A DNA stretch of 64,000 bases, taken from the sequence record PX104378.1. The stretch is one strand, 5' to 3'. Under the pieces are notes generated by a model, which was given only the letters and a program-made list of their open reading frames with translations, was not told the origin of the DNA and ran no database searches. This document shows positions 20,560 to 25,455 of the stretch, in pieces. The position numbers were made by a program, and so were the translations under genes. Numbering within the stretch: position 1 is the stretch's first letter; each line of letters opens with the position of its first letter. Source of the stretch: a phage.

Positions 20560-22383
20560 TTATGATTGCATCCAAATTTTGCGTTGATCTGCATCTTCAC
20601 TATAGAGCAAATCGAATAGCTCTTTATAGTTTTCCGGCAACGTGATGATCTCCATTACAGGATCGTTGATCACGCGATGATAGTCTGATTCTGTGAGCGA
20701 TGCTAAACCTTTGATATATCGAATGTTGTAACCTTTGATATTATCGCGATCGTTCTCAAAATCTTCTAGGTCATAATACCATCGAACATCATCACCTTTC
20801 TTTGGTTCCGCAATGATAATAGGTGTTTTGATAAACCGGATTCGACCATCTTCGAACAATTCAGGCCAACGTGCAAAGAAAGAGATCAGACTAGGCTTAA
20901 TAGACCCGATCCCGTCAGTATCAGCGTCTGTCATAATCGCAATATTTTTGTATTGCATAACTTCCAATGCATCAACACCAAATTGCAGACCAGTGATCGC
21001 CATGATGTTAAAAATTTCGGCGTTCTTAACGATCTTTGCCTCCGGTTGTTCCCACGTTGTAAGAGTTTTGCCTCGCAACGGGAAACCGCCATGTAAATCT
21101 TGATCACGTACAGAGATCAGATAGTTGATCGCGGAATCACCTTCCGTCAAAAACAGGGTAGTTTCTGCGTCAGTTCCAATAAGGTTAGCTTTAACGTGTT
21201 TTGCTACCTTAGCCCGTTTCGCTGCCTTTGCTGCCTTAGTCGCTGCCGCTTTATCTGCTGCCTCTTTGCGTGCCAGGACTACAGCAATAATAGGCATGAT
21301 AATGTTTTCTTTCTTCGCAATGACTTTAGCCAGTTTTTTAAAATCCAGATCAATGTGTCGCTTGATATCACCAGTTGGATTAGTCAAGCGTTCTTTTGTC
21401 TGTGAATCAAAACGAAGATTAGGCAATTCACGAACAATAAGAATACAGGTCAATCCAGACTTAACCGCAGCTTTAGTAACATCAACCTTATATTCTTTCT
21501 TGATTCGTTTTACAATCTCTTCACAAAGATCATCTGTCACGTAGTCTACGTGCGTTCCCCCGTTTTTGGTAAACAGACCATTAGCAAAGGATACTGATTT
21601 AAAACCTTCTCCCTCGACCGCAGGAACTAGGGCAAGTGAAAAGTTTTTATCTTCAATGACAAACGGATCATCATTGTATAGTTTAGCATAATCCTTGAAC
21701 TTACTAACAATACGTTTACCATTAAACTTAAACGTGATCTTAGGAAAGATTACGCTCAATGATTGCAGACGATCATGAACAATATCTAAAACAGAGTTGT
21801 CCATCATATAACCTTCGAAGTGGTCGAAGTCTGGGCAAAATGTAACCTTCGTTCCCTTCAATTTTGATGGTTTCGACGACCATGTGATATTTTCAGCACC
21901 GTTTGTGCATTGAACGGTCATTTCTGTTTCACCGTCACAGGTCACACCAGTAAACCAATCGCTAAAGAAGTTTGACAACGACGATCCTACGCCGTTCATC
22001 CCTTGCGTTAGTCGATTTGTATCATCAAAGTTAGACCCTGCTTTTGTTCGTGTCCATGCGGCTACAGGTTGCGGAATCTGCGTACCCTCTGGGGTAGTAA
22101 CCATATGTTGAGGAATACCGCGACCATTGTCTGTTACCGTAACAATATTGTTTTGGATATCGACGCTAATCACATTGGCAAATTCAAAGTTAGTGCGGAT
22201 CGCCTCGTCTACAGAGTTGTCGATGATCTCATCAATGATTTTAACCAGTCCAGGAACGTATGAAATTTTTGTCCATTTACCGAACAGGAAACGTTGATGT
22301 TCTTCGTAAGTTGTTGATCCTATATACATTCCTGCACGCTTAAGGACATGTTCACGATCAGATAAAATGCGGAACTCACTCAT
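20560..22383 (-). CDS. 39: DNA topoisomerase II large subunit (GyrB-like; T4 gp39 and gp60 equivalents as one ORF)
   Basis: 607-aa uninterrupted ORF with GyrB ATPase and TOPRIM features (VDNSVDEA, GKGIP, LTEGDSA, IMTDADTDG). Confidence 0.9.
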   Translation of the reverse strand: MSEFRILSDREHVLKRAGMYIGSTTYEEHQRFLFGKWTKISYVPGLVKIIDEIIDNSVDEAIRTNFEFANVISVDIQNNIVTVTDNGRGIPQHMVTTPEGTQIPQPVAAWTRTKAGSNFDDTNRLTQGMNGVGSSLSNFFSDWFTGVTCDGETEMTVQCTNGAENITWSSKPSKLKGTKVTFCPDFDHFEGYMMDNSVLDIVHDRLQSLSVIFPKITFKFNGKRIVSKFKDYAKLYNDDPFVIEDKNFSLALVPAVEGEGFKSVSFANGLFTKNGGTHVDYVTDDLCEEIVKRIKKEYKVDVTKAAVKSGLTCILIVRELPNLRFDSQTKERLTNPTGDIKRHIDLDFKKLAKVIAKKENIIMPIIAVVLARKEAADKAAATKAAKAAKRAKVAKHVKANLIGTDAETTLFLTEGDSAINYLISVRDQDLHGGFPLRGKTLTTWEQPEAKIVKNAEIFNIMAITGLQFGVDALEVMQYKNIAIMTDADTDGIGSIKPSLISFFARWPELFEDGRIRFIKTPIIIAEPKKGDDVRWYYDLEDFENDRDNIKGYNIRYIKGLASLTESDYHRVINDPVMEIITLPENYKELFDLLYSEDADQRKIWMQS

Positions 22384-22486
22384 TATTAAACCTCTTCATA
22401 ACATAACCATAACTTACTGCAACCGCCACAAAGACGGCTGCAACAATCATATTAAAAATTGAGTGATTGTCAAGTATATGACTCAT
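22376..22486 (-). CDS. Putative 36-aa hydrophobic peptide
   Basis: Not in track. ATG overlaps the Zn-ribbon gene stop (TCATGA); its stop overlaps the topo II start; MSHILDNHSIFNMIVAAVFVAVAVSYGYVMKRFNNE. No clear SD. Confidence 0.3.
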   Translation of the reverse strand: MSHILDNHSIFNMIVAAVFVAVAVSYGYVMKRFNNE

Positions 22487-22656
22487 GACACGCGCACATT
22501 TTTATCGTAATACCCGCCATTAATCCCGCGCGGGGCAGTCAATCCCTGTTTGCATTCTTTACCACATTCAGGGCATTCTGCCTTTTCACGCTCGGAAATT
22601 TTGCGGATTTTCTGAAATTGACCGTGTTCTTCACAAGAATAATCATATAATGGCAT
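22483..22656 (-). CDS. FmdB-like zinc-ribbon protein
   Basis: Track ORF trimmed to MPLYDYSCEEHG..CPECG (CxxC...CPxCG zinc ribbon); ATG directly follows the dexA stop. Confidence 0.55.
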   Translation of the reverse strand: MPLYDYSCEEHGQFQKIRKISEREKAECPECGKECKQGLTAPRGINGGYYDKNVRVS

Positions 22657-22657
22657 A

Positions 22658-23326
22658 TTATCCCCTTTGTTTCTTAACTGAATTTGGATCTGGATTTTCT
22701 GGTAGGTCTTCCAGACCCATAGCATAACGTTGTGCATAGATTAGCATAAGAATATCGCGAGCGCAATCATGAATTGCATCATGCGCGATAAATCCGTCTA
22801 GCGTACCCATTGGTAACGGACACTCACACATCCCGCGATGCATCAATGTACGCTCAATGGCGGTGCGAACATCTCGGATGTTCCAGAATCGCACAGGTTC
22901 AAGGCTGAACGTCTCTCGTGTATTGTGTGCACGGCGGATCATATCAACTAGTAACGGAATATCAAACGCATTACCGCGTGACCACATTACTGATTTAACC
23001 GGATCTACTCCTACAGATTCACAGAATGCGTTAAAACGCGCTAAACCTTCTTTAGTTGATACTTCCGTACCATTTGTAATTAATTGCTTTCTCATGCCTT
23101 CTGAGGCGGTATTCTTCCACCATTCAACCACACCATGATCAAAGATCCTTACACCTTTCTGGGAAGGAATATCAAATTTTACCAGAAAGGAATTGTCAAC
23201 CAGTTCTTTAAAAGTCGGTGGATTATGTGGGTCTTCTTTAAATCCGATTGCCGCCATATTGATCACCGCCCCATCAGGCGGATAACCTAAACTTTCAAAG
23301 TCAATCATTAAATCCATTGGAAGCAT
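22658..23326 (-). CDS. dexA: Exonuclease A (DEDD 3'-5' exonuclease)
   Basis: DnaQ-like motifs (MIDFESLG; WSRGNAFDIPLL; HDAIHDCARD); 222 aa vs T4 DexA 227 aa; syntenic between dda and topo II. Confidence 0.8.
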   Translation of the reverse strand: MLPMDLMIDFESLGYPPDGAVINMAAIGFKEDPHNPPTFKELVDNSFLVKFDIPSQKGVRIFDHGVVEWWKNTASEGMRKQLITNGTEVSTKEGLARFNAFCESVGVDPVKSVMWSRGNAFDIPLLVDMIRRAHNTRETFSLEPVRFWNIRDVRTAIERTLMHRGMCECPLPMGTLDGFIAHDAIHDCARDILMLIYAQRYAMGLEDLPENPDPNSVKKQRG

Positions 23327-23327
23327 T

Positions 23328-23570
23328 TTAAATATCCTCCGCGATGTGTCGGAATAACTCCAGATCGTTTTTATCCAGAATGAAACCGCTACAATCAATA
23401 ATTCCTTTACCGTAATTATCGGTTAATAGTCGGTCCGTTGCCATGTATGCGCGTACCTTGTGGTTAAAATTCATTACATGTTGTGTATAGTCACAATGAA
23501 TCTTTTGACGGTTCCACGCGACAATTGATTCAAGATGAATTACCTTAGAGATATCGTTAATAACAACCAT
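23328..23570 (-). CDS. Hypothetical protein
   Basis: 80-aa ORF between dda and dexA. Confidence 0.5.
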   Translation of the reverse strand: MVVINDISKVIHLESIVAWNRQKIHCDYTQHVMNFNHKVRAYMATDRLLTDNYGKGIIDCSGFILDKNDLELFRHIAEDI

Positions 23571-23571
23571 A

Positions 23572-23739
23572 TCAAAAACCTCGCTTAGTGAAATGTTCGA
23601 TCATTTTATTGATACATGCAGCTTCACTATCGCCGGACACGTTCCAGCCGTACAGACCCCATCTAAAGCACATGGTAACAGTTCCATTGTGACGGCTTAC
23701 CGTCACATCATTAAATTCTGGGATACTTCGCATAATCAT
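23572..23739 (-). CDS. Hypothetical small protein
   Basis: Not in track (<60 aa); ATG preceded by GAGGAAATTATT; 55 aa; stop 1 nt before next ATG. Confidence 0.4.
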   Translation of the reverse strand: MIMRSIPEFNDVTVSRHNGTVTMCFRWGLYGWNVSGDSEAACINKMIEHFTKRGF

Positions 23740-23749
23740 AATAATTTCC

Positions 23750-25141
23750 TCAAATATAGTCTACTCGATACCGCGCACGGGTAACACCCACATATAATAA
23801 CTGCATTGCCAATTCAAAGTCAACATTGTCTGTACACATGCAAGGAGTATACAGGAACACGCGGTCTACGCTGATCCCTTGTGACTTATGAATGGTGCAA
23901 GCTGGTAATGCTTTTACATTCAAGAACATACGTTTCATCGTCCAGAAGGAATCCCAATCTGGTTTAAATTTTGGATTCTCTTTCTTCATTTCGCGATATT
24001 GTCCGGCGACCGTATTCAGATAGATAGAGAAAATGTTCTTCTGACGTTGTTCTGTCAGAATGTTGATTTCTACTAAATCCGGTTTATCTGTAGTGATTCC
24101 GACTGCATCTAAACCGACTTTCTGATTTAGGATTTCTTTGTCTTCGTCATCATCGACGCTTTCCACTTTCAGAGTATAGCCTAAAACTGGTTGCGGATCT
24201 ACCCCCGTGCAACGTAATGTAAATTCACGCGGGATGACCTCTTTAACTCGGATCATCTCACCATTGTTAAAAATAACATTGGGAATCTTCTTCCCGCGTT
24301 CATCTCGCATATATTCGATCAACGGTTCCTGAGTAACCAGAATTTCATCTACAATCACTGGTTCATCGGTGTTATAAACGCGCTTACGTACAATTTCATT
24401 TAGTTTTTCGACGCTCTTGTTAGTGTAAGCCAGAATACGGTTTTCTAGAAGGTCTTCCGGCGTTTTAACGGTTTCGAAATAATGCTTCATAAACTCCGGC
24501 AGAGTTGAGCTATGGAATACACCCTCGTTACCGCACTGCTTTTCGAATACCCATTTACCGTTACGGACAGCGGTCGCCACATCAATTATTGGCGCATTAG
24601 ATCGTTTAATCTCTGTAAGTTCTACATTCTGGAATCTTTCATCTGTGAAGAAAGGAGAGATCGACGTTGCACCGCTCGGATCAACTGGTCGTAACTGGTA
24701 CAGATCACCCACGGCAATAATAACAATTCGACCGTTGATACTCTTCATGAGAATATCAAATAGTTTCTTATCGACCATACTCGCTTCATCAACAATGATG
24801 ATCTGAACATCATCTAGTTTAGGAGTATCCTTTTGCTCAAATACTTGAGTATCTTCATAGTTGGTCGGGTTTAGTCGCAGTAGTGCATGTAAAGTAAATG
24901 CTTGACGACCTACCGCCTTACTCAAAACTTTTTTAGCCTGGTGGGTAGGCGTTGCCAAAACCACACCAGTTACACCACGGCGGACCATTTCCTGGACAAT
25001 GAATTTCATCATTGCGGTTTTACCAGTACCCGCCGCACCACGGACAGTTGTATGCTTCTTTTGTTCAATGCGTTTCATTAGAACATCAAAAGCATGTTTT
25101 TGTCCGTCTGTCAACATATCGAAAGTTAATACTCTGCTCAT
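23750..25141 (-). CDS. dda: Dda DNA helicase (SF1)
   Basis: Walker A GAAGTGKT, TPTHQAKK, IIVDEASM, EIKRSNAPIIDVATAVRNGKW, C-terminal LLYVGVTRARYRVDYI, all matching T4 Dda. Confidence 0.9.
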   Translation of the reverse strand: MSRVLTFDMLTDGQKHAFDVLMKRIEQKKHTTVRGAAGTGKTAMMKFIVQEMVRRGVTGVVLATPTHQAKKVLSKAVGRQAFTLHALLRLNPTNYEDTQVFEQKDTPKLDDVQIIIVDEASMVDKKLFDILMKSINGRIVIIAVGDLYQLRPVDPSGATSISPFFTDERFQNVELTEIKRSNAPIIDVATAVRNGKWVFEKQCGNEGVFHSSTLPEFMKHYFETVKTPEDLLENRILAYTNKSVEKLNEIVRKRVYNTDEPVIVDEILVTQEPLIEYMRDERGKKIPNVIFNNGEMIRVKEVIPREFTLRCTGVDPQPVLGYTLKVESVDDDEDKEILNQKVGLDAVGITTDKPDLVEINILTEQRQKNIFSIYLNTVAGQYREMKKENPKFKPDWDSFWTMKRMFLNVKALPACTIHKSQGISVDRVFLYTPCMCTDNVDFELAMQLLYVGVTRARYRVDYI

Positions 25142-25455
25142 TATCCTAAAATCCTCACCTTGCGAACACAGATAGTATTGAGTTCTCGCCGTACCCGTTC
25201 TTTTTCATATTCAGGAATTTTGTATTCTATACCATCCCGAACAATTTCAGAAGACCGGATTATACCAAATTTTCGTTTAGGCACAACCTTGTATTTCGGT
25301 TCACCTGCCAATAGACTCTCACAATAATCTATCTGATCACACATTGACGCTAACGCAGCATCATGAGTTTCGCAAGTTAGGACGCGACCTTTCGCGTCCA
25401 CTGAGTATTGAAAGAATCCGTCTTTATCACGATAACATACAGCAAATACATGCAT
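25141..25455 (-). CDS. Hypothetical protein (position of T4 dda.1)
   Basis: 104-aa ORF, Cys-rich N-terminal half. Confidence 0.5.
   Translation of the reverse strand: MHVFAVCYRDKDGFFQYSVDAKGRVLTCETHDAALASMCDQIDYCESLLAGEPKYKVVPKRKFGIIRSSEIVRDGIEYKIPEYEKERVRRELNTICVRKVRILG

Follow-up and report, generated by a model that had tools for sequence, protein, structure and literature searches.

The micro-ORF ahead of the topoisomerase gene of a Krischvirus phage lies on an invariant 119-nt block that is probably a control element

The phage genes dexA, 39.2 and 39 follow each other closely on one strand of a 64,000-nucleotide (nt) stretch of DNA (sequence record PX104378.1; the whole stretch is hereafter called the window), and between 39.2 and 39, the latter encoding the large subunit of topoisomerase II, lies a 36-codon micro-open reading frame (micro-ORF). 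The window derives from a Krischvirus (Straboviridae) with 98.5% identity to RB49, and the 1.1 kb around the junction are 97.5-98.6% identical to RB49, Phi1, JSE, GEC-3S and ~55 other Krischvirus genomes. New here are a sharply bounded, invariant block of 119 nt, promoter and hairpin signals lying under a micro-ORF that lacks a Shine-Dalgarno (SD) sequence, and a hotspot for homing-endonuclease genes just before the topoisomerase gene. The junction had been singled out in an earlier reading of the sequence (the original prediction), the features of which all lie on the minus strand at the coordinates given there. The locus comprises:

22658-23326, minus strand: dexA (exonuclease A), 222 amino acids (aa); Pfam Rv2179c-like, E=1.5e-15; annotated dexA in RB49.
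22483-22656, minus strand: gp39.2, a 57-aa FmdB-type zinc-ribbon protein; profile scores above cutoffs; annotated 39.2 in RB49, Phi1 and JSE.
22376-22486, minus strand: the 36-codon micro-ORF (RB49 ORF006.1 or RB49p006.1, phi1p006.1; phrog_25974), with a predicted single hydrophobic helix and putative translation.
22373-22491, minus strand: the 119-nt nucleotide-invariant block, without a variable column in 14 genomes and likewise in 12 genomes compared over 5 kb.
22446-22473, minus strand: sigma-70-type promoter-like site, TTGACA (22473-22468), 16-nt spacer, TATGAT (22451-22446), with a predicted start near 22439.
22414-22446, minus strand: terminator-like 14-bp stem-loop, UUGUUGCAGCCGUC-UUUGU-GGCGGUUGCAGUAA, overlapping the last base of the -10 box.
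22397-22413, minus strand: tandem repeats GTTATG-GTTATG-TTATG, located after the hairpin and ahead of the SD of gene 39, read from the sequence.
22386-22397, minus strand: insertion hotspot and gene 39 SD; insertions fall between 22397 and 22396 (JK32 and phiS types) or between 22387 and 22386 (L062 type).
20560-22383, minus strand: gene 39 (60 and 39 unsplit), topoisomerase II large subunit, 607 aa; Pfam DNA_gyraseB, HATPase_c, Toprim and TOPRIM_C; annotated in RB49.

Domain searches bore out the proposed identities of dexA, the FmdB-type zinc ribbon and the topoisomerase II large subunit, and the geometry is as originally described. The dexA stop codon TAA (22660-22658) is separated by the single base 22657 from the ATG of 39.2 (22656-22654). 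The TGA of 39.2 (22485-22483) shares an ATGA with the ATG of the micro-ORF (22486-22484), whose own TGA (22378-22376) begins 5 nt into gene 39 (ATG 22383-22381), giving an 8-nt overlap, ATGAGTGA. The peptide encoded by the micro-ORF would be MSHILDNHSIFNMIVAAVFVAVAVSYGYVMKRFNNE, for which a domain search gave no match. Neither small ORF is new: the RB49 annotation already lists the 57-aa ORF as gp39.2 and the micro-ORF as RB49p006.1, "hypothetical protein", which joined it through comparison with phi1, on bioinformatic grounds only (Arbiol et al. 2010, PMC2839356), and which forms a PHROG family of its own with no function assigned. Tight packing is not special here either, as 9 of the 13 junctions annotated in this 7-kb stretch of RB49 are overlaps or gaps of ≤14 nt, and a 1-nt gap like that between dexA and 39.2 occurs at two more of them. 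As first described, the junction is ordinary, previously annotated T4-like gene packing.

Conservation of the micro-ORF in related phages, proposed earlier as a check, was confirmed: all but one of the 59 Krischvirus records in GenBank (58) have it intact, and only the unannotated assembly LF73P4 carries a frameshift. The pattern of this conservation is, however, uninformative as to coding. We aligned positions 21000-23800 of the window with 13 insertion-free relatives (95.7-97.7% identical) using MAFFT and found 9.2% of the columns of this 14-genome alignment to be variable. The numbers of variable sites at codon positions 1, 2 and 3 are 7, 4 and 112 in gene 39, 0, 1 and 14 in gp39.2, and 9, 3 and 53 in dexA; variation is thus almost entirely at third positions, ~24% of which vary in the neighbouring genes, indicating ordinary purifying selection at the protein level. 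The micro-ORF has no variable site in 111. It coincides with the longest invariant run of the alignment, which measures 119 nt, the runner-up over these 2.8 kb having 48 nt; over 5 kb in 12 unbiased genomes the longest run is again 119 nt, followed by one of 53 nt. The core of 103 nt that reaches from the stop of 39.2 to the ATG of gene 39 (22384-22486) is matched at 100% identity by 44 of 45 full-length GenBank records, and its first 90 nt by 13 of 14 insertion-bearing ones. Variation sets in again at 22372 and 22492, with normal diversity in the 100 nt on each side (8-11 variable sites each). Since it is the nucleotide sequence that is conserved, without a single synonymous difference in 12-14 genomes, this conservation is no demonstration of selection on a protein; the promoter-like site and hairpin inside the ORF had been missed in the original prediction. 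The next-longest invariant runs lie inside dda (53 nt, 24765-24817) and across the ORF104/dda junction (73 nt, 25113-25185), the latter seen only in a 27-sequence alignment in which few sequences cover the region.

The promoter-like site matches the consensus at 11 of 12 positions and is the top hit of a 2-kb scan; the sequence upstream of its -35 box is GTCATATAC. As RB49 has neither MotA nor a middle-promoter consensus (PMC1524935), a sigma-70-type promoter is to be expected at gene 39. The stem-loop has a free energy (ΔG) of -18.9 kcal/mol (z=-5.1), and none of 200 shuffled sequences was as stable. When the fixed peptide was recoded synonymously with local codon usage, a hairpin this stable arose in 1.4% and a promoter this good in 2.0% of the sequences, and both together in 0 of 2000. 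Since recoding rarely or never reproduces them, both elements appear to be selected in their own right rather than being by-products of the Ala/Val-rich peptide. The SD of gene 39, AAGAGG (22396-22391; ΔG -6.5), is at the same time codons 31-32 of the micro-ORF. In T4, phiR1-RT, 92A1 and WSPA a GC-rich stem-loop, a -10 element and an SD also stand directly before gene 39. Comparison of the block with Rfam revealed no family near any gathering score.

The minimum free energy structure of the block (z=-2.9) pairs UCACUCA with the AUG region of gene 39, which gave rise to the idea of a switch masking the SD and AUG, of the type known from T4 genes e, 49 and soc. We rejected this idea as unsupported, because over the structural ensemble the gene 39 initiation region is no less accessible in transcripts reading through than in those begun at the internal promoter (0.50 vs 0.48). 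In every junction variant, inserted genes included, the CUC segment forms pairs with either the SD or the start of the gene that follows. The GUUAUG units (22397-22413), together with the start region of gene 39, UUUAAUAAUG (22381-22390), resemble operators of the translational repressor RegA, for which SELEX yielded the motif UUGUUAUGUAA (PMC3014915), the T4 SELEX consensus being aaAAUUGUUAUGUAA and the RB69 sequence AAUAAUAAUAA; we regard the likeness of the repeats to RegA operators as only a lead.

We then calculated how well different sets of constraints account for the invariance, with 0.243 as the probability of variation at an unconstrained site among the 14 genomes. If the block were constrained by coding alone, ~9 variable third positions would be expected and the probability of seeing none is 4e-5. 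If only the recognised motifs were constrained (-35, -10, stem, SD and the overlapping ends of the flanking coding sequences), 55 positions would be free and the probability falls to 2e-7, whereas coding and motifs together leave 16 free positions and give 0.012. No single layer of function suffices for the invariance; overlapping layers come nearest, and some constraint is left unexplained.

These values bear directly on the reading closest to the original prediction, namely that the micro-ORF is an ordinary small membrane-protein gene coupled to 39.2 and gene 39, the promoter-like site and the hairpin being incidental. The ATGA and ATGAGTGA overlaps, the predicted hydrophobic helix with KR behind it, the occurrence of the identical peptide in 484 blocks of an assembly collection, the PHROG family of its own and the abundance of small membrane ORFs in RB49 would all fit such a gene. 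It should, however, have accumulated the variable third positions that are absent here, the joint recoding result (0/2000) separates hairpin and promoter from the peptide, and the missing SD, the lack of a synonymous excess among variants and a dispensable C-terminus are hard to reconcile with it, so that we consider this reading very improbable. By contrast, it is highly likely that the selected unit between gp39.2 and gene 39 is the DNA or RNA sequence itself, most plausibly a promoter/attenuator/leader cassette for gene 39, and the micro-ORF stretch is probably a control element, which may in addition encode a very small membrane peptide, and not just a coupled micro-gene.

Whether the micro-ORF is translated at all was assessed from its initiation signals. 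Its SD:anti-SD pairing has a ΔG of +0.6 kcal/mol, which is weaker than that of the median ATG of the strand (-2.2), whereas the values of 12 neighbouring genes, other overlapping pairs included, range from -3.6 to -9.5; it is the only SD-less gene among 13 local genes. Without an SD, translation would be possible only via termination-reinitiation at the ATGA, and a transcript starting at the internal promoter would exclude the micro-ORF ATG. The translational coupling suggested originally thus retains its real overlap geometry, but at the micro-ORF it would have to work without an SD, and from dexA to 39.2 it is possible yet unnecessary, since 39.2 has a strong SD of its own (AAGGGG, ΔG -7.8 kcal/mol). 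The existence of the micro-ORF is in itself weak evidence: in dinucleotide shuffles with fixed flanks an ATG-started ORF filled the 99-nt gap in 15% of cases, and 12 of 167 random-frame ORFs of 30-50 aa in the window (7%) contain an equally hydrophobic 19-residue window. The ATGA overlap, the frame that is kept open and the hydrophobic helix followed by K/R argue for possible translation, and we put the chance that the putative peptide is also made at a little short of even. A fusion of the micro-ORF with gp39 by frameshifting, which would yield a membrane-anchored topoisomerase, was discarded, as the gene 39 frame is closed by a TGA five codons upstream of the ATG and no slippery motif was seen.

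Matches to the micro-ORF in tblastn searches are confined to 59 Krischvirus records, 44 of them full-length and identical, ~14 covering residues 1-30 only and one in two pieces. The exact peptide is the one listed in the 484 assembly-collection blocks. No homologue outside Krischvirus was found in 50,697 phage records, IMG/VR and metagenome contigs, and a collection of 5.8 billion proteins, searched with the 43-aa JK32 variant of the micro-ORF, contained only four close variants, all of Krischvirus type. Relatives of intermediate divergence, as required for a ratio of non-synonymous to synonymous rates or for covariation, were not present in any of these phage, IMG/VR, metagenome and protein collections. 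Outside the genus the interval between 39.2 and 39 holds gene 39.1 in T4, a bare 81-nt spacer in phiR1-RT, and MazG and other ORFs in Serratia phages. Within it the frame is open in the 58 intact records, in all four junction types and in a variant with a 6-nt deletion, each of these being individually weak evidence. Among ~75 distinct records searched for variants of the micro-ORF we found the following:

S2N, in JEP8: non-synonymous.
V20L, in L068: non-synonymous, changing the hairpin loop.
V22A, in L061: non-synonymous, turning a G.U pair into G-C.
Two synonymous variants, in L028 (breaking an A-U pair) and L061.
Deletion of one 6-nt GTTATG repeat unit, in L061.
Deletion of 1 nt in a T5 run, in the unannotated assembly LF73P4 (L005, ~1534): frameshifts the micro-ORF and shortens the promoter spacer; probably an assembly error.

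Three non-synonymous and two synonymous substitutions show no synonymous excess, the numbers being too small to decide. Likely assembly errors were also seen in the flanking genes: gene 39 of TB34 (L024, 2718-4540) is annotated as two coding sequences, and in Brandy (L018, ~1640) a single-base deletion in a C-run of 39.2 results in a 61-aa ORF. In the same early region a further small indel concerns a 58-aa ORF between ORF010 and ORF009 (phi1 ORF009.1), which is present in Phi1, kvi and PTE-Eco09 (L021, L022, L025; 1353-1529) and missing from RB49 and from the window (region 23570-23572).

With the data on initiation and variants at hand, a purely non-coding cassette of promoter, stem-loop and leader has to be weighed, perhaps with an additional protein- or RNA-binding role such as a RegA-type operator, ORF006.1 being an untranslated annotation artefact. 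Such a cassette would explain why the micro-ORF lacks an SD, unlike 12 of 12 neighbours, why conservation is at the nucleotide level, why the rare variants are mostly non-synonymous and leave the stem pairing intact or stronger, and why insertions replace the micro-ORF C-terminus. It agrees with the ease with which shuffles and random ORFs match the length and hydrophobicity of the micro-ORF, with the bioinformatic origin of ORF006.1, with the stem-loop and promoter found at the same position in other genera that have no micro-ORF, and with the RegA-like repeats and start region. On the other hand, it leaves 55 unconstrained positions under the recognised motifs without variation (P ~2e-7), although the spacers of nearby canonical promoters vary freely, so that an extra function covering every base must be postulated, and the frame remains open in four junction types and the 6-nt deletion variant. 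We regard the non-coding cassette as a serious possibility, though doubtful as it stands.

The 3' edge of the block is an insertion site in relatives. JK32, JEP8, MIZ2-6 and others carry a 242-aa gene of Endonuclease_7 type after codon 30, between 22397 and 22396; the metagenomic contigs L062-L067 carry a gene of the same family after codon 33, with the SD kept; and phiS and L028 have a 179-aa AP2/HNH-like gene after codon 30. These are three independent junction types, and each insertion has its own SD, with the new gene starting 14-25 nt past the block. The tail of the micro-ORF is altered accordingly, to …YWREKSEHQKVHC, …YWREKK, …SKIKV or …KRFKSGYQEIHN. Insertion-bearing genomes have a foreign 5' tract of gene 39, ~720 nt at 55-88% identity in the Endonuclease_7 type and ~120 nt in the phiS type, while their dexA/39.2 side stays ~97% identical; a divergent tract of this kind is what homing with co-conversion usually leaves behind. 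Optional homing-endonuclease genes occur on either side of gene 39 in Krischvirus: those upstream are Endonuclease_7-type or AP2/HNH-like, and JSE, kvi and G37-3 have an HNH_3/AP2 gene directly downstream; the phiS insert shares 46% identity over ~95 aa with the downstream HNH_3/AP2 gene. The endonuclease genes around gene 39 are located as follows:

L004, 1607-2335; L006, 1611-2150; L062, 3104-3832; L073, 4929-5492; L022 and L023, 4543-5101.

The vicinity of this hotspot raises the question of whether the invariance is merely historical, produced by a recent sweep or by gene conversion (co-conversion during endonuclease homing, or recombination of the kind described below for promoter-early stem-loop cassettes), or reflects another DNA-level role such as a replication origin. 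The block adjoins the hotspot, clear co-conversion tracts exist on the gene 39 side, those cassettes have been reported as recombination sites, and T4 origins consist of a promoter and a ~100-bp downstream element. Conversion tracts should, however, blur the edges of the island, which are sharp at the gene boundaries with undiminished diversity in the adjacent 100 nt, and this argues against a conversion tract or a sweep. Furthermore, the block is common to genomes with and without the endonuclease genes, which does not hold for the gene 39 tract. As to an origin, T4 oriA lies near soc rather than gene 39, and what follows the promoter here is a GC-rich element, with no A+T-rich unwinding element, so that we rejected this candidate. 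Overall, a historical cause or another DNA-level role is quite improbable.

Our preferred account, which we hold tentatively and at somewhat under even confidence, is a control cassette for gene 39 in which several constraints overlap, including a translated frame. In this account the 119-nt block would control the topoisomerase gene, or whichever gene is inserted ahead of it. A sigma-70 early-type promoter (TTGACA-16-TATGAT) would drive gene 39, the stem-loop overlapping the -10 box would attenuate transcripts coming from dda, dexA and 39.2, and a leader with GUUAUG repeats followed by the gene 39 SD would complete the cassette. ORF006.1, if translated, would be so from read-through transcripts only, through termination-reinitiation at the ATGA that it shares with 39.2, while gp39.2 itself would be expressed like its neighbours, from its own SD. 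The total invariance would then result from constraints that share bases, i.e. promoter, hairpin, gene 39 initiation region and translated frame.

Several observations weigh against this overlapping-constraints account. Neither promoter nor hairpin is among the RB49 predictions of Nolan et al. (51 early promoters by a hidden Markov model, 41 terminators by TransTerm), and the U-tract of the hairpin is weak. Nearby canonical promoters between genes differ strongly among the genomes (12-15 of ~30 positions), so that promoter status alone does not predict invariance, promoter-like sites embedded in dda or dexA still vary in their spacers, and even the combined model leaves 16 third positions free (P=0.012). 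No second copy of the block exists in the 64-kb window, in which blastn-short gave chance words only, and the block lacks the extended signature of canonical cassettes (GTTGACA..TATAAT-ACACACATC..GGAGAATCAA). As regards translation, all 12 neighbours have an SD and the micro-ORF has none; S2N, V20L and V22A against two synonymous changes and one frameshifted record amount to no synonymous enrichment; the last 6 codons are freely replaced by insertions; no homologue is found beyond one genus; and a terminator within the ORF would truncate its own mRNA.

A more elaborate version, which we consider unlikely though not far-fetched, would have the block do triple duty, as an SD-less 36-aa membrane peptide made by reinitiation after gp39.2, as an early topoisomerase promoter, and as an attenuator hairpin melted by ribosomes crossing the micro-ORF. 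If this were true, upstream translation would govern read-through into gene 39, similar to leader-peptide attenuation, the overlap of functions would account for the lack of any base change in ~100 genomes, and a mobile regulatory cassette would have gained coding capacity. Independently of the account chosen, the island is worth keeping in view, as it shows no variation before an essential replication gene while the other promoters and third positions of the genus vary freely, and it offers a small, sharply bounded target for studying how overlapping codes (promoter, attenuator, initiation region and micro-ORF) constrain phage sequence. It also calls for caution with catalogues of small proteins, as perfect conservation of a micro-ORF and PHROG membership need not mean that selection acts on the peptide.

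The gene preceding the block, 39.2, belongs to a widespread family. Its product matches Pfam PF09723 Zn_ribbon_8 (E=3e-12, 46.7 bits, cutoff 34.4) and TIGR02605 (CxxC_CxxC_SSSS, FmdB-family zinc ribbon; 54 bits, cutoff 31.3). The second knuckle, CPEC, is present, and the first is C8-x2-H11 instead of CxxC, with Cys35 as a possible alternative ligand. In tblastn, gp39.2 matches T4-type phages with 44% identity over residues 1-51 (E ~1e-9), and homologues occur in 917 phage records. The full-length alignment over six genera has 15 invariant columns, among them C8, C28, C31 and a C-terminal P..GG.YD motif. The first knuckle (window 22623-22635, residues 8-11) reads C-x2-H in Krischvirus, 92A1 and PS2, C-x2-D in WSPA and C-x4-C in T4 and phiR1-RT. 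In the T4 reference (L003, NC_000866, 5398-5839) 39.2 is annotated with 45 aa and 39.1 with 65 aa, and both look truncated by frameshifts. The C-terminus of T4 39.2 (…PKHGNNGFYDLLKG) is found in a shifted frame and agrees with the relatives and with the published size of 58 aa; a signal-peptide-like N-terminus (MKYISRSIAALVLAVSLINS…) lies upstream of the annotated T4 39.1 start in another frame and matches the ~82-aa gp39.1 of PS2 and WSPA.

Comparison with T4 suggests a role for this protein. T4 gp39.2 is known as NwgI; this peptide of 58 aa displaces the equilibrium between open and closed GroEL (Ang & Georgopoulos 2012, as cited in PMC4396842 and PMC5153855). As the T4 C-terminus recovered in the shifted frame, …PKHGNNGFYDLLKG, aligns with …APRGINGGYYDKN of the window, gp39.2 is a full-length NwgI homologue and, by inference from this homology, would be a GroEL-modulating small protein. 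The two share the gene name, a position ahead of gene 39 in the early region dexA...39, nearly the same size (57 vs 58 aa) and the pattern MPLYDY..C...KKIS.R...CP.C...P..GG.YD. They differ in sequence (~40-47% identity) and in the first knuckle, C-x2-H here and C-x4-C in T4 and phiR1-RT; the GroEL effect is known from T4 alone, and the next gene is 39.1 there and the micro-ORF here. T4 gene 39.1 resembles the micro-ORF in its position between 39.2 and gene 39 and in its hydrophobic N-terminus. Its product, however, is an ~82-aa signal-peptide and lipobox protein, lipoprotein-like in PS2 and WSPA, with no detectable similarity to the 36-aa ORF, which is why we rejected the micro-ORF as a homologue or remnant of 39.1. 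The hotspot, in turn, resembles the sites of free-standing homing endonucleases (seg/mob type) of T4-like phages, with Endonuclease_7-type and AP2/HNH-type genes that some genomes carry and others lack at a single intergenic site beside a conserved gene, each accompanied by a divergent tract in that neighbour; here, however, the insertions belong to relatives and the window itself is insertion-free.

The closest known counterparts of the block are the promoter-early stem-loop (PeSL) regulatory cassettes of RB49 and phi1 (Arbiol et al. 2010, PMC2839356; Comeau et al. 2014, PMC4122927). Sigma-70-like promoter hits in the window number 51 on the minus strand and 6 on the plus strand (e.g. 60432, 50738, 42689, 26268, 20187, 13112 and 11808), and many of the minus-strand hits have the arrangement GTTGACA, GGGG..CCCC palindrome, TATAAT, ACACACATC…, GGAGAATCAA, ATG, which is that of the published PeSL cassettes. 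The block departs from this arrangement in three respects, as it has no GGGG...CCCC stem, no A-rich or A+T-rich tract ahead of the -35 box and no ACACACATC...GGAGAATCAA leader. A polyG/polyC tract is missing as well, a feature called frequent but not universal (PMC2839356). Moreover, it is invariant where canonical cassettes nearby are hypervariable, it precedes a core gene rather than an ORFan, it is absent from the published RB49 early-promoter and terminator predictions, and Arbiol et al. themselves annotated its interval as ORF006.1. A repeated element was rejected for the 64-kb window, as the block shows no similarity to other cassettes beyond the hexamers. The likenesses lie in layout and setting. 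The block occurs in the same phage group and combines strong sigma-70-like -35 and -10 boxes (TTGACA-16-TATGAT, 11/12) with a stable stem-loop overlapping the last base of the -10 box, which fits one of the five published PeSL subclasses, with a stem-loop overlapping or just past the -10 box (PMC2839356). Relative to 39.2 and gene 39 it is placed between an upstream stop codon and a downstream SD and start, though in an interval annotated as an ORF, and it borders insertion or replacement events, with three junction types and two kinds of endonuclease gene at its 3' edge. From its sequence we predict that the block works like a PeSL cassette, although it does not belong to the repeated family. 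PeSLs have been reported as recombination borders carrying their own promoter and terminator (PMC2839356), and insertion junctions that keep the block and add an SD-bearing gene fit this role: as reported for PeSLs, the block is the constant left border of a variable slot.

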